Below are positions 23,980-57,417 of a stretch of 64,000 nt of DNA, piece after piece. The notes beneath the pieces were generated by a model. It searched no databases and had not been told where the DNA came from. It saw only the letters and a list, made by a program, of their open reading frames with translations. Position numbers and translations under genes: made by a program. This DNA comes from an uncultured Gammaproteobacteria bacterium (lineage in GTDB: Bacteria > Patescibacteriota > Microgenomatia > Daviesbacterales > UBA10151), in NCBI GenBank assembly GCA_964524895.1, contig CAZGFG010000001.1, positions 54,936 to 118,935 on the forward strand, written 5' to 3'. How positions within the stretch are numbered: the first letter of the stretch is position 1; every line of letters begins with the position of its first letter.

Positions 23980-23988
23980 GCAAAATAA

Positions 23989-35494: not shown

Positions 35495-35560
35495 TTCTCT
35501 TAATACTGGTTTTTAAGGAAAGGTAAAAACCAAGATTTGTAAGGTTTTATCATATAAGTA

Positions 35561-38836: not shown

Positions 38837-38839
38837 GCT

Positions 38840-40249: not shown

Positions 40250-41876
40250 TTTTAACTCTATTTATCTTAATCTTGGCCAGCTCCTCTCGTACCATCTCTG
40301 TTATTTCAACCAGCCGATTTTTTCCTTCTAGCTTGAAGGCATACACATTTTCAATTGGAATTGGTGCTTGAGGGAAATCAAATGGCGCCAATGAACTGCC
40401 ATCTGTTACGGCCGATACGACTTGTTCCCAACCATCCAGAGGAACTGGCATCTTAGAAAAATCATCTAAATTATAAGCTAACGCCATATGTACAGGAAAA
40501 CCGAATGTCAGTGCTCCATAAAGAATTTGTCTATTCTCCCCTGTGAAATAAAAGACCTGCGCTTCTCCACTCTTCCCAATTTCCGAGATTAAAGGAAGTT
40601 GTTCCCAAACTTTTTCTGTAATTTCAACACCATGCAAATTGTCTACTTGATACTGTAAGTAGTTTCTTGAAGAATAAATGTTTAATATAAGAAACAGCGA
40701 AACGAAAAGAACACCTAATATCGTAAATTTTCTTTTTATTCTACTTATAAGAATCGCTATAAAAATGGTTAGTCCGGATGCTGAGACTATTAGATAACGA
40801 TGAAAAAAGGGTAGTAAAGTTAATGGATCTTTAAGCCAAGCGAAAATAAATGCACATATTAACCAGCAAAAAGCTAAAAAGAATCCAGTCGAAATTAGAT
40901 AGTTGCTACGATTTTTATAGATCAGCCTTAAGGCAAAAAGGATAAAGAATATCCCTACCCAAAGCATTATTCTTTGATCAACCATCTGATAGTCAAGAGG
41001 TATTAACATATTACCGATAATAATAAGCGGGTACAGAATAAAATCTGTACTTCCTTTATTCAGCAAGGCTCCAGACGAAGCTAATCCCCCTTTCCATACT
41101 CCGGTTAGCTGATCTATCGGACCAAAAAGGGAATATCCCGAACGCCCACCAAATTCGGAGACTATCTGACCAAATATGACTAGAATAATAAATAAACTTA
41201 TAAAACCACTCAACCGGATTATTAACAACTTTAGATTTTTTAACTGAAAAAATCTAAAGAAAAAGAATAATTCCATTAATAGGACAAGGGGTACTGCACC
41301 AGTCATTCTGACTGAGGCAGTAAACATCGCCAGAACCAAAAACAATAGGCTAATCACATAAAAACGCGGGTTGTAGTCTTTTTCATGAGCCTTCACAAAA
41401 TAAAGGAGGAAAAAATTGAATAAAGCTATGGCAATATAAACTGGCATATTAAAAACCCAATTAGTAGCATCAAGACCTACGGCAGTTACAGAAAAAAATA
41501 AAACAGCCAATACAGCAGAAACTTTATTCTTAGTTAAATAATAAACAAGCGGATAAAAAGATAGAGCTGCAATCAACCTTAGAATATAAGCTGTAATATA
41601 GTAGTAAAGAGATTTAAAACCCACTATCTCTGCTATCAAACCCATTATTAACTCAAACGAGCCGTACCTGGTTAAAAAATACGTTAAGTAGTTTAAAGCT
41701 CCATGGGAAACAGGACCAATGGTATAGAAATATCTCCATAACGCTAGCCAATCATCTCCATAAAGTCCTAATTGAAAGCTTGGATAAAGTGCAAATAAAC
41801 TGAAGGGCACCAGAATTAGAAAAATGAAAATTAGATTCTTTCCTTTAGTCATTATTTTTAAAATCTTTAACAGCAA
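40236..41876 (-). CDS. GT-C-like polytopic membrane glycosyltransferase paralogue (546 aa).
   Basis: LYGDDWLALW motif after TM1, the family NIP... region and a C-terminal VYAFKLEGKNRLVEITEMVREEL tail. It overlaps the upstream methyltransferase by 32 nt. Confidence 0.6.
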   Translation of the reverse strand: MLLKILKIMTKGKNLIFIFLILVPFSLFALYPSFQLGLYGDDWLALWRYFYTIGPVSHGALNYLTYFLTRYGSFELIMGLIAEIVGFKSLYYYITAYILRLIAALSFYPLVYYLTKNKVSAVLAVLFFSVTAVGLDATNWVFNMPVYIAIALFNFFLLYFVKAHEKDYNPRFYVISLLFLVLAMFTASVRMTGAVPLVLLMELFFFFRFFQLKNLKLLIIRLSGFISLFIILVIFGQIVSEFGGRSGYSLFGPIDQLTGVWKGGLASSGALLNKGSTDFILYPLIIIGNMLIPLDYQMVDQRIMLWVGIFFILFALRLIYKNRSNYLISTGFFLAFCWLICAFIFAWLKDPLTLLPFFHRYLIVSASGLTIFIAILISRIKRKFTILGVLFVSLFLILNIYSSRNYLQYQVDNLHGVEITEKVWEQLPLISEIGKSGEAQVFYFTGENRQILYGALTFGFPVHMALAYNLDDFSKMPVPLDGWEQVVSAVTDGSSLAPFDFPQAPIPIENVYAFKLEGKNRLVEITEMVREELAKIKINRVKNEFY

Positions 41877-42474
41877 TCAATCCACCGCTTATTTCAGGGA
41901 AAAAATAACTAAAAGGGGTAAAAAGGTAATAAAGCGCCTGTTTTAATTTAATAAAACGGTCCCCCCAAAGCAATGGGATTTTTACTCCGATTCCATAAAC
42001 CCTATACCCACGTGACCTGAAATCTTTAATAGTCCAGAGTGACTTATGTTCATCCTCTTCTTCACCTTCTATGGTTTTGAAAAACATATTCGGGGTGGAG
42101 ATAATAGCCCTTCCGCGGCAAACTCTATCTATCCCTTTTAACAACTTCAATCCATCACTTCTGTTTAGATGTTCAATAACCTCTATACATAAAATAAGAT
42201 CGACGCTTTTATTTTTTAAGGGAATAGTCGGTAATCTGTGTTTAATAATACGGTCATAGGTATTATGCTCCATACAAGATTTTATATATTTTTCGTTTAT
42301 CTCTATTCCTAATAATTTAGTGTCCTTTAAGTCTCTACTTCCATGTAGAAGACAACCGTTTAATCCTCTACCACAACCAACATCTAAAACTGTTTTATTA
42401 GCTATAATAGGGGTAAAATATGATATAAACGGGTGATAAAAAAATGGGTGTGTCCCAGACGGTATGTTATTCAT
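41845..42474 (-). CDS. Class I SAM-dependent methyltransferase (209 aa), paralogue of 11544..12176.
   Basis: VLDVGCGRGLNG, VDLILCIEVIEHLNRSDGLKLL, ISTPN. Confidence 0.8.
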   Translation of the reverse strand: MNNIPSGTHPFFYHPFISYFTPIIANKTVLDVGCGRGLNGCLLHGSRDLKDTKLLGIEINEKYIKSCMEHNTYDRIIKHRLPTIPLKNKSVDLILCIEVIEHLNRSDGLKLLKGIDRVCRGRAIISTPNMFFKTIEGEEEDEHKSLWTIKDFRSRGYRVYGIGVKIPLLWGDRFIKLKQALYYLFTPFSYFFPEISGGLIAVKDFKNND

Positions 42475-42492
42475 AAGTTATAGTTTTAGAAA

Positions 42493-43500
42493 TTAATTTA
42501 GTTTTTTTCTCCAATTCTCTGGTAAAAGTTGGCTATCAATTTCAATTTCAGTATAAATAGGATTTTGTACCCCTTGTGATTTTACATATTCCCATGTTTT
42601 TTTTAAACCCTCATTAATAGAGGTTCTATCTTTATATCCTAAATATTTTTTTGCTAAACTATGGCTTGAAATAGCAATCTTTACCTCTTGGGGTCTATTT
42701 TTAATGTATTTTGGCTTTATTTTGAGACCAGAAATATTTTGTACTATGTCAGAAAGTTCATTAATAGAATGATCTTTATCTGATCCGATATTAAATATCA
42801 TGCCATTGGCGTTTAAAAATCCACATTTTATAATTGCATCGACTACATCACTAATGTAGGAAAAGCATCTTCGCTGTCTCCCATCCCCATAAATAAAATA
42901 AGGTTCGCCCTTAAGAAGAGCACTCATAAAAATAGTAACTACATTTCGATAGGGGTCTGACATATTTTGACCAGGTCCATACACATTATGAGGTCTAGTA
43001 ATTACATATTCAAAATTATGGACACTGCTTAATATCTTAAGCGATTGCTCTACAGCAAGTTTCCCCACTCCATATATATCTTCTGGTTCAGGTCTATCTG
43101 ACTCTTTAAAAGGTGCCCGAATAGATCCATAAACAGCAATGCTAGATGTAAATACGAATCTCTTCATACCATTATTTAAAGCAGGAACAAGAGTATTTAT
43201 GAAGGTATTATATGTTCTAGTAGAAATATCTATTGGTGAGAATTGGGCCTTATTCTCAGCAGCATTTGCTGCTAAATGGTAAATAATCTCCGGCTTTATA
43301 ACCTTGATTATTTCTTCTGCTTTTTTTCTATCTCTCAAATCACAAAGATAAAATTTAGAGTTAGGGTTTAGATTTTTTTTACTACCACCTGATAAATCGT
43401 CTATATTAAAGACATTATGACCTTCACTTATTAATTTATTTATTAAATGACTTCCAATGAATCCCGCTCCCCCAGTCACTAGAATGTTTCTTTTTTTCAT
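42493..43500 (-). CDS. NAD-dependent epimerase/dehydratase (UDP-sugar 4-epimerase/decarboxylase-like extended SDR).
   Basis: ILVTGGAGFIGSHL and YGVGKLAVE (YxxxK). 335 aa. First gene of the ~12 kb minus operon. Confidence 0.8.
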   Translation of the reverse strand: MKKRNILVTGGAGFIGSHLINKLISEGHNVFNIDDLSGGSKKNLNPNSKFYLCDLRDRKKAEEIIKVIKPEIIYHLAANAAENKAQFSPIDISTRTYNTFINTLVPALNNGMKRFVFTSSIAVYGSIRAPFKESDRPEPEDIYGVGKLAVEQSLKILSSVHNFEYVITRPHNVYGPGQNMSDPYRNVVTIFMSALLKGEPYFIYGDGRQRRCFSYISDVVDAIIKCGFLNANGMIFNIGSDKDHSINELSDIVQNISGLKIKPKYIKNRPQEVKIAISSHSLAKKYLGYKDRTSINEGLKKTWEYVKSQGVQNPIYTEIEIDSQLLPENWRKKLN

Positions 43501-43628
43501 ATTTATGTATTAATTAACCACAGCTATCTTATTCAGAAACTAACCTTTTTTCAATATTTAAAATCTCCACTATATTTTCATCTATATATGATATTACTAT
43601 TATATATGTTAAACTTTTTTAAACTTTT

Positions 43629-44651
43629 ATGAGGTGGCCTTTAGTCTCAGTGGTAATGTCGAATTACAACGGAGTAACGTTGAATCTATTAAATGATTCT
43701 CTCCCTCCAATTCTAAAAAACTCTTATCCAAACTTAGAGGTAATTTTAGTAGATAATGCCTCAACTGACAACAGCGTAGATTATATAAAAAATAAATTTG
43801 GTAAGAATCCCCGTCTAAAGATTATTCAAAATCATATTAATATGTACAGTATAGGACTGAATTTAGGAGTAAAGAACTCCTCCGGCAAATATGTAGCTTT
43901 TTTCAACAATGATGTTGTCGTAGAGGATGATTATTTTCAAAAAATAATTACTTTTTTAGAAAAAAATTCTGATATTGCATTAGCTCAAGGGAAATTAGTG
44001 TCATATTATAATAAAAAAATAATTGATAGCGCAGGGGAAACAATGGATTACTTCGGGAATCCTATAACTATAGGGTCAGGTCAGAATGCAAAGGAGAGTT
44101 ACAACCAAATTATGGAAATATTATCTGTTAGTGGCTCGTGCTCAATTTTACGAAAGTCTGTAATTTCCAAGGTTGGATATTTTGACGATGACTATGGTAT
44201 TGGATATGAAGATATGGATCTGTCCTTAAGAGCATGGCTTAGGGGGTATCGGGTAGTTTATTCCCCTGATGCTATAGCTTTTCATAAAAGGGCTGCTACA
44301 GACCTCTCCCCAATGGTTAGAGCAATCGTTAGGTGGCATTTCAACAAAAATAGGCTAGCTACAATGATTAAAAATTATCCCCTTACCGATCTTATTACCT
44401 GTCTACCTGTTACAATAATTATTTATATTTTTGCAGGATTATGGGAAATATTATTGAAAAAGAATTATCAAGTAGGAATAACTCGATTCTCTGCAATTAT
44501 ATGGGCCATTGATCACCTACCTAATATAATTAGAAAAAGGGGCTTAGCCAGAAACGGAATTAACAATAGCAATTTTGAAATAATTCGTAAACTTTTGTTT
44601 AAAAAGATATTATTCCAAAGCTTTTTGTCTTTTCTTAAAATCAAAAATTAA
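43629..44651 (+). CDS. GT2 glycosyltransferase with a C-terminal membrane segment.
   Basis: VSVVMSNYNG...EVILVDNASTDNS and YEDMDL. Hydrophobic C-terminal region (LPVTIIIYIFAGLW). Confidence 0.75.
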   Translation: MRWPLVSVVMSNYNGVTLNLLNDSLPPILKNSYPNLEVILVDNASTDNSVDYIKNKFGKNPRLKIIQNHINMYSIGLNLGVKNSSGKYVAFFNNDVVVEDDYFQKIITFLEKNSDIALAQGKLVSYYNKKIIDSAGETMDYFGNPITIGSGQNAKESYNQIMEILSVSGSCSILRKSVISKVGYFDDDYGIGYEDMDLSLRAWLRGYRVVYSPDAIAFHKRAATDLSPMVRAIVRWHFNKNRLATMIKNYPLTDLITCLPVTIIIYIFAGLWEILLKKNYQVGITRFSAIIWAIDHLPNIIRKRGLARNGINNSNFEIIRKLLFKKILFQSFLSFLKIKN

Positions 44652-45275
44652 ATGAATTTCCTACCATTTTCCTATAATTGGGTGGTGCAAAGAAACCTTA
44701 ATAAAGCAAACGTTAAAACTGTCTTAGACCTTGGCTGCGGAACAGGCACAACTGGTATTAGATTTAATCAAAATAACCAGTACCTTTTGACGGGTGTAGA
44801 CATATTTGCACCATATCTTGAAGAATGCTTAAGGACTGGAAAATACGCTAAAGTGAAAAGTGGAGATTTTAAAAAAAAATTAAAGTTTAAAAGTAAAGGG
44901 TTTGATGCAGTGGTATGCTTGGAAACGATTGAGCATTTATCTAAAAAAGATGGACTAAAGCTAATCGGAGAGGCTGAAAGGACTGCAAAAAAGGTGGTGA
45001 TCTTTACCTGCCCAATGGGGAAAGCTATCCAAGAAAGTTATGATGAAAACAAGTATCAGAAACACTTATCATCCTGGTTTCCTGGAGAATTTACAAAAAG
45101 AGGATATAAGGTCAATGGGATCGGTTTAAAATCCGTTTACGGAAAACACACCCACGTTAACCATACTATAAAACCTTACACAGCTCCATTATATTTTCTG
45201 TCTTTTTTAGCTAATCCTATAACAAACATTTTCCCAAATATATCTTGTCAGATGGTAGCCATTAAGTTACTCTAA
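44652..45275 (+). CDS. Class I SAM-dependent methyltransferase (207 aa), paralogue of 11544..12176.
   Basis: VLDLGCGTGTTG, FDAVVCLETIEHLSKKDGLKLI. It starts 1 nt after the GT2 stop and ends 5 nt before the giant GT-C gene. Confidence 0.8.
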   Translation: MNFLPFSYNWVVQRNLNKANVKTVLDLGCGTGTTGIRFNQNNQYLLTGVDIFAPYLEECLRTGKYAKVKSGDFKKKLKFKSKGFDAVVCLETIEHLSKKDGLKLIGEAERTAKKVVIFTCPMGKAIQESYDENKYQKHLSSWFPGEFTKRGYKVNGIGLKSVYGKHTHVNHTIKPYTAPLYFLSFLANPITNIFPNISCQMVAIKLL

Positions 45276-45280: not shown

Positions 45281-47503
45281 ATGAGAACCCTTCTTGTCAC
45301 CTCTATCCTTGCTTTAATTCTAGTTTGTAGCTGGTTTAAGGATGGTGATTTGATGGGATACGCAGAAGGGGCTCTTCCCTTCTATAAAATTTCCCGTTAT
45401 TTAGATCAAACTTCATATGCATGGACTGCGCATCCGGGCCTGGGAAATATAAGCTTAATTACTACTGCCTCTAAGCCCACATATCAATTACTGACCCTAA
45501 TTCAGGATTCAGGTATAGCTGGGTACCAGATTCAAGCAGCGGTTTTTTGGTTTCTTTTAGTAAGTGCTGGGGTAGGAATTTATCTATTTACTAAAGAATT
45601 TTTTCCTGAATTACCTGAAAAATATTTATTTCTGGCAATATTATTTTATTGGTTTAATCCGATCTCTTTGGTCAATATTTGGAATAGATTCTTGCTTAAC
45701 TATATTTTCTTTTTTGGAGCACTCCCCTTGCTATGCTTTCTATTTATCAAGGGTTTACGAGCAAAAAGTTATTTTTGGGGCTTACTGCTGATAACTACTA
45801 TTGGAATTTATTCTTATATCTTTTCTTATCTGGCTTTTAGCTTGCTTATCTGGATTGCTTTTGGAATTTTTACTCTTTTCTTCATTCTGCTTGAGAAGGA
45901 ATCAAGGGTATGGCTTTTTTATCTAAAATATGTAATTTTGGTATTTGTTCTTTTTGTTTTATCTAATTCTTGGTGGATTAGCCAGCTATTAACATTCCAA
46001 TCCTCATTTGGATTTGATAAATCCTTTCAGGAACTATTTAACACTGCAAGTAATTTAGGGGTCTTGGATGCTATAAGTCAAAAGTTGGGGAATTTAACTC
46101 ATATATTTAGAATGTCTCATGCCTACTTTTTTACCCAACCCTCTATGGAGTGGGTCAAACTCTTCAATTATCCACTTTTGGTTGCTGTAGAATATTTTAT
46201 CTTTGGGATTATTTTTTATTCTTTTATTAAAAATTACCAGGAAAAATCTTTTTTCTTATTAGGAAGCATCTTGTTCTTGGTTATTTTTCTAGTAAAAGGA
46301 AGTAATCCTCCTTTTGGAGAAGTTTATAGTTTATTATTCCAGAATCTTTCCTTTTTACAGGTCTTTCGAAATCCTTTTGAGAAATTTGGGTATCTCCAAT
46401 CCATGTTAGAAGCATCATTATTTGCAATAAGTCTTTATTATTTGCAGAAAAAAAAGTTTCCCCTAAGAAGACAGTATTTGTATTTATTCTTCTTTTTTTT
46501 TATAACATTTATCTGGGGATTCCCCTTTTTTACAAACCTGGTATTTACCAATACAGAGGCTCCCTCGAACATTTACTCTATCGGTTATAAAGTCAAAGTC
46601 CCTCCGTATTATTCAGAAGCAAGTGATTGGTTGCAACATCAGGGTAGTAATTTTCGCTTAATTGGCTTCCCTATTACTGAGGAAGGGGTTACATATAATT
46701 GGGAGAAGGGCTACTCTGGAGTAGAATTATCCAGTACTCTTTTCTCAACCCCAGGAGTCTTTTTTAACACTGCTGTACCTATGCATCATGATCTAGTCCC
46801 TAAATTACAACCTCTTTTATTTGAAGAAGAGAGTTTCTATAGAATAGCAAATATTATTAATGCCCGATATTACTTAGTGAGAGACGACGTAAATTATCAA
46901 ATACGGGCTCTTAAAAACCCTGAAGGAATAAAAAGAAGGTTTGCATATTTAGAAGAACAAGGAGAAGTAAAGAAGGTAGCAAGCTTTGGAAAGTTAACTA
47001 TCTGGGAAAACTTAAACTGGTTTGATACTACTTTTTATCCTGTTTTAGAGGTGGTGGCAGTCTCATCAAAATTTGATAAGAATATTCTGTCTAAAGTCGA
47101 TCCTTCAAAAGGGAGGGTCTTATTGAACAAAGAGATGAATCTGTCAAAAGAAAATACCTCTAATATCAAACTACAATACAAAAAAATTAATCCTGCTAAA
47201 TACGCTCTCCATATCTCAACTGATAAACCGTTTATTTTAATCTTCTCTGAGCTTTTTAATGGAAACTGGCAAGCAATTTATCCTGATAAAAAAATAGTCG
47301 ATAATCATCTGATTGCTAACTATTTTGCCAATGCATGGATGATTGATAGGGTAGGAGAATACGATATCGAAATTCTCTTCAAACCTCAGGTTCTTTTTGA
47401 AACTGGTCAAAAATTATCACTTATAACACATAGTATAGTTATTTTATTATTAGGGTATCTCTACTTAAGAACGAGAGGTTATGTAAAAAACCAAAATGAT
47501 TAA
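45281..47503 (+). CDS. 740 aa polytopic membrane protein, YfhO/AftD-like GT-C putative glycosyltransferase; paralogue of 8039..11536.
   Basis: Its N-terminus (CSWFKDGDLMGYAEGALPFY) parallels VWFKDGNILAIGESGIPFY, and the YSIGYKVKVPPYYSEASDWL...GVTYNWEKGYSGVEL block is shared. It has a C-terminal TM (ITHSIVILLLGYLYL). Confidence 0.6.
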   Translation: MRTLLVTSILALILVCSWFKDGDLMGYAEGALPFYKISRYLDQTSYAWTAHPGLGNISLITTASKPTYQLLTLIQDSGIAGYQIQAAVFWFLLVSAGVGIYLFTKEFFPELPEKYLFLAILFYWFNPISLVNIWNRFLLNYIFFFGALPLLCFLFIKGLRAKSYFWGLLLITTIGIYSYIFSYLAFSLLIWIAFGIFTLFFILLEKESRVWLFYLKYVILVFVLFVLSNSWWISQLLTFQSSFGFDKSFQELFNTASNLGVLDAISQKLGNLTHIFRMSHAYFFTQPSMEWVKLFNYPLLVAVEYFIFGIIFYSFIKNYQEKSFFLLGSILFLVIFLVKGSNPPFGEVYSLLFQNLSFLQVFRNPFEKFGYLQSMLEASLFAISLYYLQKKKFPLRRQYLYLFFFFFITFIWGFPFFTNLVFTNTEAPSNIYSIGYKVKVPPYYSEASDWLQHQGSNFRLIGFPITEEGVTYNWEKGYSGVELSSTLFSTPGVFFNTAVPMHHDLVPKLQPLLFEEESFYRIANIINARYYLVRDDVNYQIRALKNPEGIKRRFAYLEEQGEVKKVASFGKLTIWENLNWFDTTFYPVLEVVAVSSKFDKNILSKVDPSKGRVLLNKEMNLSKENTSNIKLQYKKINPAKYALHISTDKPFILIFSELFNGNWQAIYPDKKIVDNHLIANYFANAWMIDRVGEYDIEILFKPQVLFETGQKLSLITHSIVILLLGYLYLRTRGYVKNQND

Positions 47504-47732
47504 TTATTGGCTTATTTTTATAATTTGGGTATTATTCTTGATATTCAAAAAAAGAGAGTTTGCCTATTATTTAAATATTTCTTTTTATCTATTTTGTATT
47601 GGCGCCGTTTTAAAAGTGTTAACAATTGACACTCCTTCAGAAATATTCATGAGATTGAGCTTACTCTCGATACTGACAAGTTTAGGATTTATCATTTGGA
47701 AAAATATCAAATTGAGCTTTCTTAGAAACTAA
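47496..47732 (+). CDS. Small integral membrane protein (78 aa, 2 TM); uncertain.
   Basis: Hydrophobic ORF overlapping the upstream giant GT-C stop by 8 nt, in the same relative position as 7735..8055. However, its 3' end overlaps the convergent carbamoyltransferase gene by 51 nt. Confidence 0.3.
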   Translation: MINYWLIFIIWVLFLIFKKREFAYYLNISFYLFCIGAVLKVLTIDTPSEIFMRLSLLSILTSLGFIIWKNIKLSFLRN

Positions 47733-49487
47733 ATAAGGTCCCAGTGCAAGATATTTAAGCCCAGAGTTTTTAAAAACAAAGAGGGCGTCATCAGGAGTAT
47801 ACACAATTGGGAAACCGTGTAAATTAAATGAAGTATTTAGAACAGCTCCTATCCCAGTAAGAGATTTAAACTCCTTTATAATTTTATAGTAACTAGGATT
47901 CCAATCCTGGTAAACAATTTGCGGTCGAAGCGTATGATCATATTGATGGGTTGCAGCTTTTAATTTATCTTTTCCTAGTTCTGTTGCATCAAAAGTAACA
48001 ATCATATATGGCGCCTCTATCTTTTTTTCGTTTACAACATACTTATCTTTATCTTCTTCCAAAATGGAAGGAGCGAAGGGCATCCAAAAATCGCGACTTT
48101 TTATCTGTTCATTAATCTGGGAAATAACTTCTAGTTGAGAAGGATGAGCAAGTATCGATCTATTCCCTAGTGCCCTTGCTCCAAACTCCATCCGGCCATT
48201 AAACCGTGCCACAACCTGACCTTCGGCCAAAAGTTGGACTATATTTTTTTCTATATCTTTTGGTTTTGAACATATATAGGAATTATATTCCGATTTTTTT
48301 AAAGCCTTTTCAATTTCTTTATTGGTAAACTCTCCGCCTAAATATAAATCTTTTATATTATCCACTGTGTTTTTATTTGATTTAGTCAAATATCCCCAGT
48401 AAGCTGCGCCAATAGCACTGGATTCATCAGACGCAGAAGGAGTTACGTAAAATTCCTTAACCTCCGGAAGTTCTAGAATTTTCTGATTTGCTTTCACATT
48501 CATAAAAACACCACCGGCGCAAACGACATTGGTAATACCCGTTTTTTTAATCCCCATTTTTATCCACCTACATAAAACATCTTCTGTAAGAAATTGAAGG
48601 GCACCGGCAATGTTATCAAATCTTTCATAGGCGTATACTGTAGGCAGAAGTCGATAGAACATATGAGAATGAATAATCGTTCCAAAAGAGAGGTCATCAT
48701 TAATCCAGATGGTATCTTTTATTTTTTTGAATACAGACCGATAGTTCTTAGGGCTTGCATAAGGTGCAAGCCCCATTACTTTATATTCATGTTCACCTAG
48801 TTTCATCCCTAAATAGGCAGTTGTTTGGGTATAAAGATCACCAATTGAAGTACCGGATGGTGATTGGGAAATTCTTTTAATTTTTCCGTTTTTTGCAACA
48901 CTTACTGTTGCACATACATTATCTCCCATTGAATCTAGTGTAAAAATAAGAGTGGGTAAGGACTTGTTAATATTTGCTCCGTAAAAAGCCGAATAAATGT
49001 GTGCATCATGATGCTCAGCCTTTAAAATTTTCTCCTTAGGAAATCCTAAATTCTTTTTTATATCTTCCTGTAGATTTTTCTCCAAAATAGGATCAACAGT
49101 AAACTTATAAAACATACTCAGTAATTGGTCTAACAAATATTTTGAATAAGGAAATAAAGTAAGGATCTGTTCTTTTATAAACCACAAAACAGAAATCGCT
49201 TTTTGTTTTATATCAAGGTCTTGATTCTTAACAATTTTCCCCTTCTCTCCTTGAAAAGTAGTGTATCCGGTGTGAATCTTGGGATCTTGATAATTTAACA
49301 CTAAATAATCAACATCTCCCAATTTCAAATTCGATATTCGTAGGCATTCTTTTATAGCAAGATAAGGAATTCCCGCTTGGTTCTTAACCCTTGTTAAGCG
49401 CTCTTCAGAAATACAAGCAAGAACCTTTCCATCTTTCAAAAGACATGCTGTAGCAGTATGGGAAGTATTTACTCCTATGACAATCAT
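47682..49487 (-). CDS. NodU/CmcH-family carbamoyltransferase (O-carbamoyltransferase).
   Basis: N-terminal Kae1/YgjD-like start MIVIGVNTSHTATACLLKDGKVLACISEERLTRVKNQAGIP (family consensus ...DSAAALV.DG......EERFTR.KH..GFP). 601 aa. Paralogue of 53312..55051. Confidence 0.8.
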   Translation of the reverse strand: MIVIGVNTSHTATACLLKDGKVLACISEERLTRVKNQAGIPYLAIKECLRISNLKLGDVDYLVLNYQDPKIHTGYTTFQGEKGKIVKNQDLDIKQKAISVLWFIKEQILTLFPYSKYLLDQLLSMFYKFTVDPILEKNLQEDIKKNLGFPKEKILKAEHHDAHIYSAFYGANINKSLPTLIFTLDSMGDNVCATVSVAKNGKIKRISQSPSGTSIGDLYTQTTAYLGMKLGEHEYKVMGLAPYASPKNYRSVFKKIKDTIWINDDLSFGTIIHSHMFYRLLPTVYAYERFDNIAGALQFLTEDVLCRWIKMGIKKTGITNVVCAGGVFMNVKANQKILELPEVKEFYVTPSASDESSAIGAAYWGYLTKSNKNTVDNIKDLYLGGEFTNKEIEKALKKSEYNSYICSKPKDIEKNIVQLLAEGQVVARFNGRMEFGARALGNRSILAHPSQLEVISQINEQIKSRDFWMPFAPSILEEDKDKYVVNEKKIEAPYMIVTFDATELGKDKLKAATHQYDHTLRPQIVYQDWNPSYYKIIKEFKSLTGIGAVLNTSFNLHGFPIVYTPDDALFVFKNSGLKYLALGPYLVSKKAQFDIFPNDKS

Positions 49488-49589
49488 GTTTGCAAAAAGG
49501 CAGATATACTTTAGATGAAGGTTAATAATAAATCAAGTTTTGTATAAAAAAACATTTATCTTCTTAAGATAAGTGTTAAAATACCCTTC

Positions 49590-50216
49590 ATGTCAAGTCT
49601 ATTCAACACACTCAAGCGCTCTCCCATTTATGATCTACTTCTACCTATATTTCAGATATTAGAGGTCAAGAAATGGCAAGACAGAAAGATGAACCCTCCA
49701 ACACCACAACTTATAAAACATTCCGTAGTAAGAGAGTATCTATGTAAGTATAGGGTACAGACACTGATTGAGACAGGGACGTATTTGGGAGTTATGATTG
49801 ATGCTCTTAAAAGAAATTGTAATGAGATCTATACTATAGAATTAGATAAGAGGTTATATGAACGAGCCAAAAAAAAGTTTAAGAAATATTCCCATATCAC
49901 AGTACTTCAAGGAGATAGCACCAAAGTTCTACCTCGGATATTAAAAAAGATTAACAACCGCACTCTTTTTTGGTTAGATGCCCATTTTTCTAAAGGAATT
50001 ACGGCGAGAGGGGAAAAGGAAACACCTGTTATGGAGGAACTTAAAGCTGTTCTCAATCACCGAATTAAAAATCATGTCATTTTAATTGATGATGCAGATG
50101 TATTTAATGGTAAAAATGATTATCCAACTATTAATACCGTCAGAAGACTTATTAATGCAAAAAATACTAAGTTAAAGTTAAGAATTAAAAACAACATTAT
50201 CAGAATTACGCCTTGA
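49590..50216 (+). CDS. Putative class I methyltransferase-fold protein (TylF/CmcI-like O-methyltransferase fold), 208 aa.
   Basis: LIETGTYLGVMIDAL (glycine-rich SAM loop-like) and FWLDAHF. The assignment is tentative. Confidence 0.4.
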   Translation: MSSLFNTLKRSPIYDLLLPIFQILEVKKWQDRKMNPPTPQLIKHSVVREYLCKYRVQTLIETGTYLGVMIDALKRNCNEIYTIELDKRLYERAKKKFKKYSHITVLQGDSTKVLPRILKKINNRTLFWLDAHFSKGITARGEKETPVMEELKAVLNHRIKNHVILIDDADVFNGKNDYPTINTVRRLINAKNTKLKLRIKNNIIRITP

Positions 50217-51606
50217 TATAATTAGAAGTTCTATGATTTTTTAATTTAACATTAACCTTTTTGTTTATATTTTCAGCGCCATTTGTCTCTCTTATATGTA
50301 TCCCCAAAGGAAGATATTTAATATTTACAGGTAAATCATCAGCTTTAAATATTCGCCAAGGATCGATAACAGTTATTTTCTCATTCTCCGAAAATTTCAC
50401 GTTTTTAAATTCTGGCCAATTCATCGCAAAAAGTAATAAATTGGAGTTTTTGATGCACTGATTAATGTCTTTCGCATAGATAATTTTATCTCCAAAAACT
50501 TGTTTGATATTTTTTAGTGAAATTGGATCATATACTATAATTTTTATCTGTTCTTTAATTAATTTTTCCAGAACCTTTATACCCGGCGATTCCTCTATTA
50601 CATCAGTATTGGGCTTATAAGATAAACCTAGTACACCTACAGTCTCTCCTTTTGATATATTCTGAAACACAAATTGAGCTAATCTCTGGTTTTGTTTTAC
50701 ATTTATCTTGTGAGTTGTTAGTGCTAGTTTCGCAACCACCTTGTTCTTATTAGCAATATAAGTTAAGGCATTATTATCTCTGGGAAAACAGGGACCCCCA
50801 TAACTCGGACCCCCCTTTAGATATCTCTCCCCTACTCTTGAATCTAAACCTATTGCTGATGTTACAACATCTACATTTCCTCCAGGTAATTTCTCACATA
50901 TCTCTGCTAACATATTGGCATAGGAAATTTTGGTTGTTATAAAGGTATTTAATGAGATTTTAGTAAGTTCGGCATTAACAAAGTTCATTCTGATAACTGG
51001 AGCTTGATTATCTAAATATTTTTTATAAAACTCCTCTAATATATCTCCTGATCTTGCGTCAGATTCTCCTATTAGAACAAAGTTAGGGTTAAGAAGATCC
51101 TTAATCACGCTTCCCAGAGCAATGAACTCAGGATTATAGCATAACCCAAACTCATGCCCACAATTAAATTCATTCCCACATACCTTTTTAGATAATTTCT
51201 CAATTAATTGCTTAAGTTTGTCTGTTGAACCTGGTAAAACAGTACTTACTATTACTATTAAATGGTAAGCGTTTTTATATTTTAACCCTTCGCAGATTCT
51301 TTTTAAAGCTAACTTAATATATTTCAGTGAGAAATTGCCATTCTTTAGACTCGGAGTAGCAGTGACAATAAAAGTAATATCTGTTTTTAATACCGCCTCA
51401 TAAACATCTGTCGTTGCAGATATTCTCTCTTTATTTTTTTTCAAAAACTCCTCCAGATCAGGCTCATAAATATATACCTCACCTTTATTTACCTTTTCCA
51501 CATTCCGACTGTTGATATCGACGCCTATAACCTCAAATCCCTTAGAAGCGATACTTACCGCAAGAGGGAGACCTAGTTTTCCTAAACCGACAACTGAAAC
51601 CTTCAT
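50206..51606 (-). CDS. Nucleotide-sugar 6-dehydrogenase (UDP-glucose / UDP-N-acetyl-hexosamine dehydrogenase family).
   Basis: N-terminal VSVVGLGKLGLPLA NAD-binding motif and catalytic Cys region GGPCFPRDN. 466 aa. Confidence 0.8.
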   Translation of the reverse strand: MKVSVVGLGKLGLPLAVSIASKGFEVIGVDINSRNVEKVNKGEVYIYEPDLEEFLKKNKERISATTDVYEAVLKTDITFIVTATPSLKNGNFSLKYIKLALKRICEGLKYKNAYHLIVIVSTVLPGSTDKLKQLIEKLSKKVCGNEFNCGHEFGLCYNPEFIALGSVIKDLLNPNFVLIGESDARSGDILEEFYKKYLDNQAPVIRMNFVNAELTKISLNTFITTKISYANMLAEICEKLPGGNVDVVTSAIGLDSRVGERYLKGGPSYGGPCFPRDNNALTYIANKNKVVAKLALTTHKINVKQNQRLAQFVFQNISKGETVGVLGLSYKPNTDVIEESPGIKVLEKLIKEQIKIIVYDPISLKNIKQVFGDKIIYAKDINQCIKNSNLLLFAMNWPEFKNVKFSENEKITVIDPWRIFKADDLPVNIKYLPLGIHIRETNGAENINKKVNVKLKNHRTSNYIKA

Positions 51607-51648
51607 ATCTTTGCTATATTAAAAGTACGAAATTATTTTCAATATTAG

Positions 51649-53304
51649 TTAAGCGCTAAATTTATGGGCAATGGGAATTCTTCTGCCTATTCCGAATGCT
51701 TTCTTAGTAACTTTAACACCAGGAGCTGCTTGTCTTCTTTTGTATTCATTCCGATTAATCAAATCTAGGATACGCCTAACCACTCCTTCAGGGTATTTAT
51801 TTATCAACTCTCTTTTTGTTTTCATCTCTTCCACAATTTCATCAACCAAAGGTGATATTATACTGTAAGATGCTCCCAATGATTGCTCGTCGGATTGATT
51901 ATCCCTTAACTCTGCGCTAGGAATTTTTTTAATTATATTTTCAGGAATTATTTTTTTCCCAAGACTATTAATAAATTCTGCAAGTCTGTATACTCTCAAT
52001 TTAGAAATATCAGATAGAGGGGCAATTGCTCCACACATATCACCATAAAGAGTTGAGTATCCTAACGCAGTCTCTGTTTTATTGGCGGTACTTATTACTA
52101 AACCATTAAATTTATTTGCATGGGCCATGAGTATCATTCCTCTTATTCTAGCCTGGATATTCTCTTCAGTACTGTTAAATGGTAGATCACTGAACTGTTT
52201 CTTGAGAGAGTTTAAGAAAGTATCATAAATGTCATTAATTGGAATTATTTCTAGTTTAATTCCTAGATTTTTTGTCAATGCTTTTGAATCTTCTAGGCTA
52301 CTTGAGCTCGAAAAAGAAGATGGCATAAATATGCCTGTAACGTTTTTCACCCCTAACGCTTTGACAACGATAGTTGCAACGACAGCTGAATCTATGCCCC
52401 CTGAGATACCAATAAATGCTTTTACGAACCCTGCTTTTTCAAAATAGCTTTTTATAGAAAAAATTAAAGCCTTATAGATTCCAACTATCTTATTATCAGA
52501 TGTTAATTTTATTTCTGCGTTATCTTTATGAAACAGTTTATTGGAATTTACATAAATTAAATCCTCTTCAAATTGTTTACCTAAAGCTATTAATTTTCCA
52601 AAGTTATCAAAAACCATACTTTGACCATCAAATACTAACTGCCCATCGTATCCATCTTGGACACCAACGGTATTAGCGTAGATAAAAGGAACTTTGTGAT
52701 TTAAACTAGTTCTTCTTACTAACTTTTCTCTATCAAATATCTTGTCGACATAGAAAGGTGAACCGGATATATTAATTAATATTTTGGCTCCACGATCAAT
52801 CAAATCCTCAGAAACTTTTAAGGGGTAATTATCATCCCAAAGATCTTCACAAATTTGCACCCCTAATCTAATTCCTTGAAAATCGATCACCTTTCTACCC
52901 CTTCCCTGGGAGAAATATCTGTTCTCAAAAAATACATCATAGTCTGGTAATAATGTCTTATCTTGAATTGCCAATAACTTTTGATTATATATAATAGCTG
53001 CAGAGTTATATCTTATTGGAGTGTTGTCTGGCCCTATCTTATTTTTGTCACAATCAATGAACCCAACTATAACAAATATGTTTTTTGTAAATTTGATAAT
53101 CTCTCGTAAGGCTTTTAAATTATCGTCAATATATTTGGAATGTATCATTAAATCGAGCGACATATAACCCGGAATGGAAAGCTCTGGGAAAACGACTATT
53201 GTTGTTTTATTCTTTTTAGCAATATTTATGTATTTGATAATTTTTTTCGTATTTCCCTCTATGTCTCCAGGTTCAGTAGCAATTTGAGCTATAGCTAATT
53301 TCAT
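51649..53304 (-). CDS. nadE: Glutamine-dependent NAD+ synthetase family protein (N-terminal CN-hydrolase/glutaminase domain plus C-terminal PP-loop ATP pyrophosphatase).
   Basis: FPELSIPGY (Glu), QICEDLW (Cys) and a conserved Lys region form the nitrilase triad. The C-terminal GISGGIDSAVVATI is the PP-loop SGGxDS. 551 aa. Confidence 0.7.
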   Translation of the reverse strand: MKLAIAQIATEPGDIEGNTKKIIKYINIAKKNKTTIVVFPELSIPGYMSLDLMIHSKYIDDNLKALREIIKFTKNIFVIVGFIDCDKNKIGPDNTPIRYNSAAIIYNQKLLAIQDKTLLPDYDVFFENRYFSQGRGRKVIDFQGIRLGVQICEDLWDDNYPLKVSEDLIDRGAKILINISGSPFYVDKIFDREKLVRRTSLNHKVPFIYANTVGVQDGYDGQLVFDGQSMVFDNFGKLIALGKQFEEDLIYVNSNKLFHKDNAEIKLTSDNKIVGIYKALIFSIKSYFEKAGFVKAFIGISGGIDSAVVATIVVKALGVKNVTGIFMPSSFSSSSSLEDSKALTKNLGIKLEIIPINDIYDTFLNSLKKQFSDLPFNSTEENIQARIRGMILMAHANKFNGLVISTANKTETALGYSTLYGDMCGAIAPLSDISKLRVYRLAEFINSLGKKIIPENIIKKIPSAELRDNQSDEQSLGASYSIISPLVDEIVEEMKTKRELINKYPEGVVRRILDLINRNEYKRRQAAPGVKVTKKAFGIGRRIPIAHKFSA

Positions 53305-53311
53305 ATTTAGT

Positions 53312-55051
53312 TTATACCATTAAGTCTAAACTTGAATCTTCTGGGTTACCTATCAAGTAGTTACCAATTGCTAAATAATCCAAATTTCCTACCAAAAAAG
53401 CTCTTAACGCGTCGTCGGGCGTACACACAATCGGCTCTTCATGAATGTTAAAACTCGTGTTTATAAGGGTAGGTAATTTAGTAATTTTATAATATTCTTT
53501 TAAGATTTTATAATAGCTGGAATTATCCTCTTTTGCCACCAATTGAGGCCTTGCTGTGTTATCCACATGAACAACTGCAGGTGATTTTAATTTCATCTCC
53601 TTAGAGCAGTTGAAGGTGATGGTCATAAATTTGGCAGCATATTTAGCACCTTTTAAATTTAAAAAATATCTATGAGAAAATTCATATAAAGTTACTGGTG
53701 CAAAAGGCATAAATTCAGTTCGTTTTAATTTAGCATTTAAAGTTTGATTAATTTTTGGGTCAGTTGCCTGACTAAGAATGCTCCTGTTTCCCAAAGCCCT
53801 AGGACCATACTCCATTCTTCCGTTAAACCTTGCTACAATTTTTCCCTCTGTGAGTAGTTTTGCAATCGCTTTTTCGATAGCCTTATAAAATTTATACTTT
53901 ACCCCGTATTTTTTAAGCGTTGTTAGTATTTGCTTATTTGAATATGAGGGGCCAAAATAAATATTCTCTAATCTTTTAAACTTCATTTTGTTCTGAACTC
54001 CTATATGCAAACCACCCCCTATTGCTAATCCATCGTCCCCCATCGCTGGATGAATGAAAATTTGTTTAATTTGCGGTAGCTCATAGATTTTTTGGTTCAA
54101 TTTAACATTGGCCATTACCCCTCCAGCTAAGGCAATTCTCTCTATTTTGTGTTCTGCCAACACTTGTTTAATTATCTTCAGAACACAATCTTCTAATCTT
54201 TGCTGAAAAGCAGCTGCGATATCTTCCTGTTTATATTTTTCATATTCCTTAGGTCTCTTTTTGTAATATAAGCAATAAGATGTTATTTTAATTATTTTTT
54301 CATAATCCACCCGGAGCTCTAATCCATCGACCCAAAGAAGTGATTCAACTAGCTTATATACTTTTTGGGGATCACCATAAGCAGACAATCCCGTGATTTT
54401 ACCTTCGTGACGTAAGGGTTTAAACCCGAGTATGTAAGTCGATATGGAATAAAATATCCCAGCGGAATTAGGTAAGCTACATTCAGTTATTTTTTGCCAG
54501 TTGTTATCTCTAACTACATAAAGAGACATTGCTTTTAATCTTCCTCCACCTTCAAAACATCCTACTAAACAGCTATCCCATCCAGAGGTGTAGTATGCAG
54601 AATAAAGATGTGCATTATGATGAGAAACAAAAACATATTCTCCTCTAAACCCTTTAAGAAATAACTTGAGTCTTACCAGCGGAAGAATATCCTTATACAA
54701 GTAGGCTGGAATAAAGAAAAGCGATATAAATATTGATTTTAAAACAAAAAGAGGATTTTTTAAGACAAATAAATTTCTCCCTTTAGTAAGAAAAAACTCC
54801 ATAGTAAAAAGCTTAATGATCTCAACAAAGGAGTCGGGGAATGGTTTCTCTCCGATAACCACTACTTTGTCGATTTTTTTAGGAGAAATTTTTGTAAACT
54901 CTAGGCAATTTTCTAATGCTTTATCTGGAAAACCTTTATCCATTTTTTTTCGAGAAAAACGCTCGTTTGATGAAGCGTATAGAATTTTCCCATCTTGTAT
55001 TAATGCAACTGAGGCGTCATGACTATGAAATTGAATTGATAGTATCGTCAT
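53312..55051 (-). CDS. NodU/CmcH-family carbamoyltransferase, second copy.
   Basis: MTILSIQFHSHDASVALIQDGKILYASSNERFSRKKMDKGFP. 579 aa. Shares blocks with 47682..49487 (ARFNGRMEFGARALGNRSIL / ARFNGRMEYGPRALGNRSIL). Confidence 0.8.
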   Translation of the reverse strand: MTILSIQFHSHDASVALIQDGKILYASSNERFSRKKMDKGFPDKALENCLEFTKISPKKIDKVVVIGEKPFPDSFVEIIKLFTMEFFLTKGRNLFVLKNPLFVLKSIFISLFFIPAYLYKDILPLVRLKLFLKGFRGEYVFVSHHNAHLYSAYYTSGWDSCLVGCFEGGGRLKAMSLYVVRDNNWQKITECSLPNSAGIFYSISTYILGFKPLRHEGKITGLSAYGDPQKVYKLVESLLWVDGLELRVDYEKIIKITSYCLYYKKRPKEYEKYKQEDIAAAFQQRLEDCVLKIIKQVLAEHKIERIALAGGVMANVKLNQKIYELPQIKQIFIHPAMGDDGLAIGGGLHIGVQNKMKFKRLENIYFGPSYSNKQILTTLKKYGVKYKFYKAIEKAIAKLLTEGKIVARFNGRMEYGPRALGNRSILSQATDPKINQTLNAKLKRTEFMPFAPVTLYEFSHRYFLNLKGAKYAAKFMTITFNCSKEMKLKSPAVVHVDNTARPQLVAKEDNSSYYKILKEYYKITKLPTLINTSFNIHEEPIVCTPDDALRAFLVGNLDYLAIGNYLIGNPEDSSLDLMV

Positions 55052-55192: not shown

Positions 55193-56365
55193 ATGAAGCT
55201 TTATAAGGATAAAACAAAAATATTAATGTTAACTCATTATGCATTTCGAGCGGAAGATGGTGAGGATACTGATCAACGTATCCTTCGATACCTAAAAGAG
55301 CGGGTTAGAAAAGTAGTTTTAATTACCCACCCATTTCCAGATTTTAATTATCGAACTTCCTATTGTACTATTTACGAAAATGGGAATCAGGTAAAGCAAA
55401 TAAAGGTGGCCATTGTGAAAGGACTTTCTGCTCTACAATACCTTCACCACGTCTTACTAATTTACTATTACCTCGTAAGGGTAGGTCTCTCGTATGACCT
55501 TTGTATCGCCCTAGAAAATATGTCATTTATGGTAATTTTACCTTTTCGTCTATTGGGTACTGTCAAAAGATTGGTTTACTACTCAATTGATTTTATGCCT
55601 CAAAGGTTTCCTAACCCTTTTATAAACTGGCTATATCACTTTATAGATAAACTGGCATGTAGACTTTCAGATATTAATTGGGTAATGGTTAAGGAGCAAA
55701 TAAACGAACGCAGAAAATATGGGGCGATCACAATTAAAAGTTCTGCATTTACAATTGTTCCAATCGGATATGAGACAAAAAATATTGATATAAAACCTTT
55801 AAATAAGATTGACTTTCATAATATTGTATACGCAGGTGGTTTCAGGGAATCAATGGGCCCACAACTAGTTATCAAAGCTATGCCTCACTTGATAACAAAA
55901 ATCCCAGATATTCGGTTAACTATTATCGGGTTAGGAAAAGATTTAAAAAAATTAAAATCATTAATAAAAGAATTAAAAGTTAGTCAACAGGTTGATTTTA
56001 AAGGGTTTATACCTGGTTTCAGGGATTTAACTCATGAGATATCTTTAAAAAGCATAGCTCTTGCTCCTTATGCACCTATACCGGGAAGTTATAGTTATTA
56101 TTCTGATCCAAGCAAGATAAAACTTTATATCTGCTGCGGGGTTCCAGTCATTACAACGAAAGTAACTACTATTTCAAATTTAATCTCAAAAACTCACTCT
56201 GGTATTATAATTGATTATTCAGAAAAGGCTCTGTATAAAGCAGTATTATTTTTACTTGCTTCTAAAAAAAGATTCCTTAATTATAAAAATGCCGCTATAG
56301 ATCTTTCCCACAAATTTGATATTAACCACATTATGGACAATGCTATTCAAAAAATCCCATTTTAA
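55193..56365 (+). CDS. Putative GT-B-fold glycosyltransferase (GT4-like), 390 aa.
   Basis: C-terminal pattern KIKLYICCGVPVITTKVTTISNLISKTHSGIIID resembles the GT4 donor-binding region. The N-terminal half is less diagnostic. Confidence 0.5.
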   Translation: MKLYKDKTKILMLTHYAFRAEDGEDTDQRILRYLKERVRKVVLITHPFPDFNYRTSYCTIYENGNQVKQIKVAIVKGLSALQYLHHVLLIYYYLVRVGLSYDLCIALENMSFMVILPFRLLGTVKRLVYYSIDFMPQRFPNPFINWLYHFIDKLACRLSDINWVMVKEQINERRKYGAITIKSSAFTIVPIGYETKNIDIKPLNKIDFHNIVYAGGFRESMGPQLVIKAMPHLITKIPDIRLTIIGLGKDLKKLKSLIKELKVSQQVDFKGFIPGFRDLTHEISLKSIALAPYAPIPGSYSYYSDPSKIKLYICCGVPVITTKVTTISNLISKTHSGIIIDYSEKALYKAVLFLLASKKRFLNYKNAAIDLSHKFDINHIMDNAIQKIPF

Positions 56366-56460: not shown

Positions 56461-57417
56461 ATGAGTAGAGGGAAAATGGAAGATAAATATTTAGTAACAG
56501 GGGCAACAGGTTTTGTGGGTTCATATATAGTCAGAAAGCTCGTAATGCAAGGGAAAAATGTTCATATATTAACAAAAGAAAAAAAACTAAACTGGCGATT
56601 ATCCGACCTTTCCTCAAAAATCCATGTACATGAAGCAGATCTTCTGGATAAAAAATTACTAGTTTTAGTAAAAAAAATTAAGCCTATTTATATATTTCAT
56701 TTTGCTGCCTCTGGATCTTTACCCAATGAAGAAGATATGGGTAACCTTATAGATGTAAACTTAAAGGGGACAATTAATCTCATAAGCGCTGTTAAACAAA
56801 ATAAATTTAAGCTGTTTATAAATACAGGAAGCTCCTCAGAATATGGAGTTAAAAAGGGATCGATGAAAGAAACAGATCTTCCTTTTCCGATTAACGACTA
56901 TGGTATAACGAAAACTGCTTCTACTCTTTATACTCATAAGGAGGCTATACGGAATAATTTACCCCTTATTACTTTTAGACTCTTCTCTGTTTATGGGCCT
57001 TATGAGCAGAAGACTCGCTTGATTCCAACTGTGATTCTATCAGCTCTAGCAAATAATCCTATTAATGTTTCTAGTCCTACTCATGTTAGAGACTTTGTAT
57101 ATATTGACGATGTTGCTGATGCTTACTTGTCAGCATGCAATGCAAGAATTATTCCGGGTGAAATTTTCAATATTGGGACAGGAAAACAACATAGTGTAGG
57201 AGAAGTTGTAAAAAGCATTCTTCAATTTTCCCAAAGTAAGTCAAGGGTAGCATGGGGTACGGTGAGAAAACAAAGCAGACAGATAGAGTCTGCAGACTGG
57301 CGGGCCGATACAAGAAAATCAGAAAAAATACTTGAATGGCAAGCTAAATATTCATTACATCAAGGTTTAAAGGAATCTTTGGTCTGGTTTAAAGAAAACG
57401 GTTTTCTATATGAATAA
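56461..57417 (+). CDS. NAD-dependent epimerase/dehydratase (extended SDR).
   Basis: YLVTGATGFVGSYI Rossmann motif and YGITKTASTL (YxxxK). 318 aa. Confidence 0.8.
   Translation: MSRGKMEDKYLVTGATGFVGSYIVRKLVMQGKNVHILTKEKKLNWRLSDLSSKIHVHEADLLDKKLLVLVKKIKPIYIFHFAASGSLPNEEDMGNLIDVNLKGTINLISAVKQNKFKLFINTGSSSEYGVKKGSMKETDLPFPINDYGITKTASTLYTHKEAIRNNLPLITFRLFSVYGPYEQKTRLIPTVILSALANNPINVSSPTHVRDFVYIDDVADAYLSACNARIIPGEIFNIGTGKQHSVGEVVKSILQFSQSKSRVAWGTVRKQSRQIESADWRADTRKSEKILEWQAKYSLHQGLKESLVWFKENGFLYE

Follow-up and report, generated by a model that had tools for sequence, protein, structure and literature searches.

In a 64-kb stretch of bacterial DNA from contig CAZGFG010000001.1, the gene for a glutamine-dependent NAD+ synthetase (nadE) lies inside a glycan-biosynthesis locus, on the same strand as and just upstream of a gene for a nucleotide-sugar 6-dehydrogenase (ugd; product, UGDH). 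Throughout, the window is the whole 64-kb stretch, and the region studied was 47682-55051 plus its neighbours. The conserved placement of nadE beside the dehydrogenase gene is a trait of a clade of related NadE proteins and not an accident of one genome. We think it likely that the locus makes a glycan that contains, or is derived from, a uronic acid and is O-carbamoylated, O-methylated, and O-acylated, and that nadE encodes the normal NAD+ synthetase of the cell, relocated from a salvage operon and now transcribed with ugd. An earlier, sequence-only reading of the region had suggested that NadE could amidate a uronate to a uronamide, and had kept a housekeeping role as its fallback. We found the fallback to be the better reading: the protein passed the equivalog cutoff for NAD+ synthases, the relevant residues were kept, and the stem branch of the clade was not lengthened.

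Judged by its sequence, NadE is a genuine glutamine-dependent NAD+ synthetase. The 551-aa protein (51649..53304, minus strand) has an N-terminal CN_hydrolase domain (106 bits) and a C-terminal NAD_synthase (PP-loop) domain, scored 585.5 bits on the NCBIfam model NF010588 'NAD+ synthase' (equivalog cutoff, 479), and could be aligned over its full length with the solved two-domain NadEs of A. baumannii (5KHA, E = 1e-104) and B. thailandensis (4F4H, E = 1e-99). These results bear out the initial description of the gene product as a full-length NadE-type glutamine amidotransferase with a CN-hydrolase and a PP-loop domain. The protein shares its length, its domains, and ~40% identity from end to end with two-domain NadEs (NF010588/PRK13981; 5KHA, 4F4H), as well as the Glu-Lys-Cys triad and the motifs SGGxDS, EENxQARxRG, TxNK(S/T)E, GYxTLYGD, PSAEL, and EYKRRQ. 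It differs from them by five small substitutions and by its location in a glycan locus next to ugd, whereas its nearest relatives have nadE in the NrtR/PncA/PncB/NadM operon.

Those residues for binding the substrate of NAD+ synthetase, nicotinic acid adenine dinucleotide (NaAD), that could be mapped were conserved throughout the clade. We took the clade to be the first 58 of 118 aligned homologues of comparable length (120 matches listed), a tight cluster with at least 63% identity to the window NadE. The glutaminase triad E41/K116/C152 was 100% conserved in the clade, and the SGGIDS motif at 301-306, the EENIQARIRG motif (N382/Q384/R386/R388), T406/N408/K409/E411, and E520-Y521-K522 were 98-100% conserved. 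In human NadE, Tyr525 stacks on the nicotinate, Asp530 is strictly conserved, and His648 (Phe634 in M. tuberculosis) is the adenine contact (PMC6946656). Motif and sequence alignment mapped these three contacts to Y416, D422, and Y521 of the window protein, respectively, and all three were 98-100% conserved in the clade, some of them more strictly than in ordinary NadEs. The comparison with authentic NadE that had been proposed as a check on the function of the gene thus found every checkable contact retained. There were 105 alignment columns that were at least 95% conserved and held the same residue inside the clade and in the relatives, and only five differences specific to the clade (A181G, one insertion, G407A, G426A, and L427I), described as conservative. 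In a neighbour-joining tree the clade was monophyletic, its stem (0.054) was shorter than the 90th percentile of internal branches, and its tip depths were like those of the sister group. We saw no sign in the protein that would point to a new substrate.

The position of nadE in a glycan locus was shared by all clade loci examined. We examined eight clade loci: the window, L003, L004, L006, L010, L011, L032, and L033. Despite reshuffled neighbours, nadE was within a glycan locus in 8/8, and a homologue of UGDH (53-85% identity) was downstream of it on the same strand in 7/8. The dehydrogenase gene came directly after nadE in six loci, with gaps of 12-83 nt; two small genes separated the pair in L004, and there was no UGDH within 10 kb of nadE in L032. 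These counts are not independent of each other and reflect one shared ancestral relocation. Carbamoyltransferases, encoded by two genes of the region studied, were missing from 5/8 clade loci (L004, L006, L010, L011, and L032) and are therefore accessory to the pairing of nadE with ugd. What is new here is the relocation, shared by the whole clade, of nadE to a place beside ugd in a glycan locus, in a lineage of the candidate phyla radiation (CPR); it is a modest observation, and all of the proteins belong to known families.

The relatives outside the clade had nadE among genes of NAD salvage. We compared the neighbourhoods of the sister protein and of four CPR/DPANN relatives at a greater distance. 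NrtR and PncB accompanied nadE in all five, and PncA together with NadM or NadD was close by in four. The sister, P0060 (L031), was encoded together with PncB and NrtR. The neighbourhoods of P0062 (L007), P0075 (L008), and the nadE of L030 held NrtR, PncA, PncB, NadE, and NadM-Nudix, and that of P0061 (L009) held PncA, NadE, NadA, a NadD-like adenylyltransferase, NAD kinase, and NrtR. The switch from a salvage to a glycan context was clean at the base of the clade, and the sister and outgroups all being in salvage neighbourhoods, the ancestral role was therefore in NAD salvage. No homologues of salvage genes were found on the window and the seven other clade loci (~177 kb in total). Neighbours with roles in NAD metabolism are a supporting, not a defining, feature of a NadE. 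A salvage operon without nadE was present on a Daviesbacteria contig (L034, GCA_043803605.1; 6312-12489), which encodes PncB, PncA, a radical-SAM protein, an aminotransferase-like protein, NadM-Nudix, and a divergently transcribed NrtR. The radical-SAM and aminotransferase-like genes are between those for PncA and NadM-Nudix, approximately where nadE stands in related operons. The Preiss-Handler route encoded there ends in NaAD, and nadE must therefore be elsewhere in that genome. Such an operon is what a relocation of nadE predicts. We found nothing relevant in the literature on NAD genes in CPR bacteria.

Several observations weigh against relocation of a housekeeping gene as the full account. 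The nadE-less operon of L034 is not tied to the clade. Among the matches listed, there were no homologues of PncB or NadM-Nudix on the contigs of the 58 clade NadEs (2.0 Mb in total), in a list of PncB matches that was filled with Bacteroidota at ~45% identity and did not include the PncB of L034; such homologues often share contigs with non-clade NadEs. If every genome of the clade had the operon, ~1.7-2 such co-occurrences would be expected on the clade contigs, and the zero observed is weakly odd (P ~0.15). Two of the clade-specific substitutions, G426A and L427I, sit four and five residues after the catalytic D422. The persistence of nadE in glycan loci whose other genes were reshuffled, and of UGDH downstream of it in seven of them, belongs here as well. 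Finally, 1/16 further non-clade NadE loci (L012-L027) had UGDH beside nadE. That locus, L014 (2-2741 on a 4.3-kb Woesearchaeota contig), encodes a non-clade NadE (50% identity) convergent with UGDH (44%) and with a short-chain dehydrogenase/reductase (SDR). It may be an independent nadE-ugd pairing, and it hints at a functional link beyond a purely neutral account.

On balance, the nadE of the clade is most likely the working nadE of the cell, and the steps of the pathway can be proposed from the protein families. At a cost of two NAD+ per turnover, the dehydrogenase would convert a UDP-hexose (most likely UDP-glucose) to the uronic acid. Glycosyltransferases, among them many GT-C-like membrane enzymes of the locus that would draw on sugars linked to polyprenyl phosphate, would then build the uronic sugar or a derivative into the glycan. 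The two carbamoyltransferases would convert carbamoyl phosphate and ATP to carbamoyl-AMP in their YrdC-like domains and O-carbamoylate a hydroxyl in their Kae1-like domains, and the methyltransferases and a pair of MBOAT and AlgX-like proteins would add further decorations. NadE would hydrolyse glutamine in its CN-hydrolase domain and channel the ammonia to the PP-loop domain, where NaAD would be adenylated and amidated to give NAD+. In the ancestor of the clade, nadE would have left an NrtR-controlled PncA-PncB-NadE-NadM salvage operon, landed beside ugd, and stayed in the glycan locus.

There is a familiar parallel for such an arrangement. In E. coli and other Enterobacteriaceae, the housekeeping gene gnd lies beside the O-antigen cluster and ugd. 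In both cases a gene of core metabolism keeps a stable link with a hypervariable glycan locus and with ugd but takes no part in synthesis of the glycan. The cases differ in that the nadE of the clade is apparently co-transcribed inside the locus and does not flank it, and in that the link arose by relocation from a cofactor operon. If our preferred reading is true, the enzymology is ordinary and its genomic place is unusual: a core cofactor gene has moved to, and is probably transcribed together with, a hypervariable glycan locus of ultra-small bacteria. This is a caution against inferring function from neighbouring genes in streamlined genomes.

We consider it quite improbable that the NadE of the clade became, or doubles as, a uronate amidotransferase. 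Such an enzyme would adenylate the C6 carboxylate of a UDP-uronic acid or of a lipid-linked uronate and then amidate that group with ammonia from glutamine, so that the glycan acquires a uronamide; together with UGDH it would catalyse the consecutive steps from UDP-Glc to UDP-GlcA to UDP-glucuronamide, and it would be the first member of the NadE family to build a uronamide. The chemistry would be the same as that of NAD+ synthetase, an ATP-dependent amidation of a carboxylate on a ring linked to a nucleotide diphosphate, and the context is suggestive: nadE is in the glycan locus in all eight cases and directly or almost directly upstream of UGDH in seven, the short gaps suggest co-transcription, the change from salvage to glycan context at the base of the clade is clean, and the clade contigs revealed no salvage genes. 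Moreover, no AsnB/WbpS-type amidotransferase turned up in Pfam scans of window ORFs (open reading frames) of at least 100-120 aa, and none of the scanned ORFs had an asparagine-synthetase-type domain; with no known uronamide enzyme in these scans, any uronamides in the glycan would therefore have an unexplained source. The enzyme itself did not support the proposal. Every mappable NaAD contact (Tyr416, Asp422, and Tyr521) was kept, the few clade-specific changes were conservative, the clade branch showed no acceleration, and the score of the protein was that of an NAD+ synthase. In L032 the clade nadE was retained with no UGDH nearby. In addition, the enzymes that are known to amidate the carboxylate of a hexuronate in surface polysaccharides, the AsnB-like WbpS/WbtH and the periplasmic WbmE (PMC6025236, PMC2615507), catalyse the very reaction that had been proposed for NadE but belong to other protein families, and the sequence of NadE shows no sign of a uronate substrate. 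Were the proposal true, it would extend NadE chemistry to sugars and add a new enzyme family for the formation of uronamides.

Two further explanations leave the NAD+ synthetase or glutaminase activity of NadE in place and give it a dedicated purpose. In one, which we regard as unlikely, the gene in the glycan locus is a second NAD+-making copy that raises NAD+ for the dehydrogenase and the many SDRs, while another nadE, either two-domain or single-domain and NH3-dependent, does the housekeeping. The intact NAD synthetase active site and the conserved co-transcription with a dehydrogenase that consumes two NAD+ in each turnover would fit, as would the precedent of T. maritima, which carries a two-domain and a single-domain NAD synthetase in one genome (PMC3376133). 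However, none of the clade NadEs was on the same contig as any other of the 120 NadE matches listed, the nadE-less salvage operon of L034 is more in keeping with a single relocated copy than with two copies, and the physiological logic is weak, in that extra synthesis of NAD+ does not regenerate NAD+ from NADH. CPR genomes, at ~1 Mb, also rarely retain redundant genes. In the other explanation, which seems to us scarcely credible, the NadE glutaminase supplies ammonia to another step of the locus, for example to the formation of carbamoyl phosphate or carbamate for the carbamoyltransferase encoded 7 nt upstream. That gene is the neighbour of nadE in both the window and L003, and carbamoyl-phosphate synthetase is often missing from CPR genomes. 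Yet the five clade loci that lack carbamoyltransferases all keep nadE, and the synthetase domain, which a mere ammonia donor would not need, is fully conserved. In glutaminases of the NadE family, an internal tunnel carries the ammonia to the synthetase site of the same enzyme (PMC6946656).

The genes of the region studied are arranged as follows, and the ORF list reproduced exactly the coordinates given in the sequence-only reading. On the minus strand, the order of transcription is that of a 579-aa class III O-carbamoyltransferase (CT2; 53312..55051), a 7-nt gap, nadE, a 42-nt gap, and the 466-aa dehydrogenase (50206..51606), head to tail. The three genes probably form one transcription unit, CT2-nadE-ugd, that starts with CT2. 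The dehydrogenase had been described as immediately followed by NadE on the same strand after 42 nt; strand and gap are correct, and the order is the reverse, with nadE transcribed before the dehydrogenase gene. A 208-aa ORF on the plus strand (49590..50216) is convergent with the dehydrogenase gene and overlaps it by 11 nt, and beyond it, again on the minus strand, is the gene for the second class III O-carbamoyltransferase, CT1 (601 aa; 47682..49487). The assemblage of these five genes is not attributable to chance. A scan of 47.4-55.4 kb for promoters and terminators gave counts at chance level, and we give no evidential weight to a promoter-like site (10/12) upstream of CT2 at 55113-55085.

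The 208-aa ORF had been called methyltransferase-like. It is present, and it is kept in the same position in two related loci (91% identity in L003 and 52% in L033), although its Pfam matches were all sub-threshold (RrnaAD, 23.9 bits; Methyltransf_24, 24.2 bits) and it is on the strand opposite to that of its neighbours.

The dehydrogenase is most like UDP-glucose 6-dehydrogenases. It has all three UDPG_MGDP_dh domains and scored 341.8 bits on TIGR03026 (cutoff, 189.8), which confirms that it is a nucleotide-sugar 6-dehydrogenase, and it has the Rossmann motif GLGKLG and the catalytic-cysteine motif GGPCFPRD. The best matches were UDP-Glc enzymes, and UDP-glucose is the most likely predicted substrate. 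The three family domains, the score above the TIGR03026 cutoff, and the catalytic Cys are shared with Ugd, TuaD, and AglM. In contrast to them, the window enzyme fell below every equivalog cutoff (AglM, 295 versus 670 bits; TuaD, 273 versus 700; WecC-type, 162 versus 750) and has Arg in GGPCFPRD where Lys is usual. Its C-terminal tail is ~30 aa longer than those of the 433-436-aa orthologues in L004, L006, and L033.

CT1 and CT2 are paralogous, full-length class III carbamoyltransferases with catalytic residues in place, as had been proposed from the sequence. Both contain Carbam_trans_N and Carbam_trans_C (E 1e-39 to 1e-60), the Kae1-like and YrdC-like domains, and in each protein both domains exceeded the Pfam gathering thresholds (CT1, 133.9 and 203.4 bits; CT2, 170.9 and 198.9 bits, respectively). 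The solved relatives that they matched best were GdmN, NovN, and TobZ. GdmN uses H27 as its catalytic base and binds iron through H133, H137, D156, and D333 (PMC9633730). The HHxAH iron ligands and the catalytic His were present in both window proteins. In CT1 all of the active-site residues were kept (H10, H159, H163, D185, and D354); in CT2, H11, H144, H148, and D339 were kept, and E167 stands in place of the iron ligand Asp156 of GdmN, where CT1 retains Asp. The motifs for formation of carbamoyl-AMP in the YrdC-like domain, which had been singled out for checking, were present in CT2 (GRMEYGPRALGNRS, PFAP, and NTSFN) and in CT1 (GRMEFGARALGNRS, PFAP, and NTSFN), and the pattern GRxE(F/Y)GxRALGNRS is common to both.

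With the catalytic His, the iron site, and the carbamoyl-AMP motifs intact, the proposal that the glycan or a precursor is O-carbamoylated holds, and that CT1 and CT2 would carry out this modification is a fair inference. The two proteins were only 34% identical to each other across their full length and for that reason probably use different acceptors. They resemble TobZ, GdmN, NovN, NodU/NolO, and CmcH in having a Kae1-like N-terminal and a YrdC-like C-terminal domain, the catalytic His, and a His-His-Asp(Glu)-Asp iron site (PMC9633730). They differ from GdmN and NovN in having no C-terminal dimerisation domain (579-601 aa versus 680-700), and from the known class III enzymes in being encoded in a glycan locus, not in a Nod-factor or antibiotic cluster. 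Neither is an orthologue of NodU: on the NodU equivalog NF041651, the two proteins scored 102.4 and 135.6 bits, far under the cutoff of 1000. Orthologues of CT1 were present in L003 (96% identity) and L033 (68%).

The genes next to CT1 are part of a conserved module. The module was kept in full in L003 and in the divergent L033 (62% identity for NadE, 68% for CT1), in the order nadE, UGDH, 208-aa ORF, CT1, 740-aa protein, methyltransferase, GT2, SDR, and methyltransferase. The 740-aa protein (u740; 45281..47503, plus strand) has ~11 hydrophobic membrane-spanning segments and is 40% identical to a 1165-aa ORF at 8039-11536. It is probably a glycosyltransferase of the GT-C type; its match to GT-C_AftD was weak and sub-threshold (17 bits). 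Homologues of it were near nadE in L003, L004, L006, L010, L011, and L033. The remainder of the module, at 40236..45275, comprises, by Pfam, a 546-aa membrane protein, a methyltransferase, and an SDR epimerase/dehydratase on the minus strand, and a GT2 and a methyltransferase on the plus strand; these genes were in the same order in L033, with 64-76% identity. On the other side of the region, a GT4-family (Glycos_transf_1) glycosyltransferase gene (55193..56365, plus strand; 63.2 bits) is divergent from the CT2-nadE-ugd unit, and homologues of it (55-59% identity) were directly upstream of nadE, and likewise divergent, in L004, L010, and L011.

In L004, the gene after nadE (9687-10460) encodes a 257-aa protein with a marginal match to the isochorismatase family (26.1 bits versus a cutoff of 27). 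PncA belongs to this family. Identification of the gene as pncA, which would favour relocation from a salvage operon, is ambiguous; by BLAST the protein matched none of the PncAs of L007-L009.

All 64 kb of the window belong to one glycan-biosynthesis locus. Its GC content is ~33%, and tRNA and Rfam scans of the 64 kb gave no match. It encodes GT2 and GT4 glycosyltransferases, many methyltransferases, SDR sugar enzymes, and a CDP-hexose branch, together with NeuB-like and AroB-related proteins, a split transketolase, and an MBOAT/AlgX-like pair. With two carbamoyltransferases, many methyltransferases, and an acyltransferase pair, the locus is predicted to make a CPR surface glycan that is heavily decorated; we know of no chemical data on such glycans. 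A typical CPR genome is ~1 Mb, and if we assume this size for the host, the glycan locus would make up at least 5% of the genome.

The CDP-hexose branch (19845-31656) encodes a Glc-1-P cytidylyltransferase (264 bits), a CDP-Glc 4,6-dehydratase-like protein, an RfbH-like DegT protein (318 bits), and an acetolactate-synthase-like enzyme of the thiamine pyrophosphate-dependent type. Interleaved with these are genes for the NeuB-like protein, the AroB-related sugar-phosphate cyclase (TIGR04425, 352 bits versus a cutoff of 400), an FGGY kinase, and an HAD phosphatase. This mix of genes suggests unusual deoxy, branched, or higher-carbon sugars. The N- and C-terminal halves of the split transketolase (57410-59130) are separate, overlapping ORFs, an arrangement that is conserved in L001 and L002. 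The MBOAT protein (DltB-like, 150 bits) adjoins the AlgX-like SGNH protein at 37445-40249, and by family the pair is one for glycan O-acylation of the alginate/Dlt type.

Genes resembling those of the Arn pathway were also present. At 62166-63733 and 29463-30452 the window encodes a deformylase resembling ArnD (89.9 bits to PRK15394), a formyltransferase of the ArnA-N-like kind, and a polyprenyl-phosphate GT2 similar to ArnC/PgfS; taken with UGDH and an SDR, these are a hint of a lipid-carried, formylated amino-sugar. We did not adopt an Arn-like pathway leading from UDP-GlcA to a 4-amino-pentose: the Arn-like genes had no adjoining gene for an ArnB-type transaminase, the sole DegT protein in the window is RfbH-like, and the ORF after the formyltransferase gene resembles a hexapeptide transferase.

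Approximately ten window proteins have 8-13 predicted membrane-spanning segments and no significant Pfam match; they are encoded at 3157-5940, 6151-7656, 8039-11536, 15567-17498, 31671-37438, 40236-41876, and 45281-47503. Two paralogue families account for eight of them: u643/u639/u625a/u625b/u546 and u1165/u740/u927. The weak match of u740 to GT-C_AftD was the sole hit in the set. These unmatched membrane proteins are probably glycosyltransferases or polymerases of the GT-C type. On the minus strand, a stop-free frame of ~1055 codons (window 1-3165) runs off the start of the window and hence was not in the ORF list.

The host is probably a Daviesbacteria-like CPR bacterium, to go by the similarity of its proteins: the nearest named relatives by NadE were Candidatus Daviesbacteria, with 64-66% identity. 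Two of the clade NadE-UGDH loci, L010 and L011, are on species-representative metagenome-assembled genomes titled 'uncultured Gammaproteobacteria', which clashes with the Daviesbacteria labels of relatives at NCBI and is probably a mislabel. The exact NadE protein of the window was also present in the Logan assemblies of SRR12113430 and SRR12113424.

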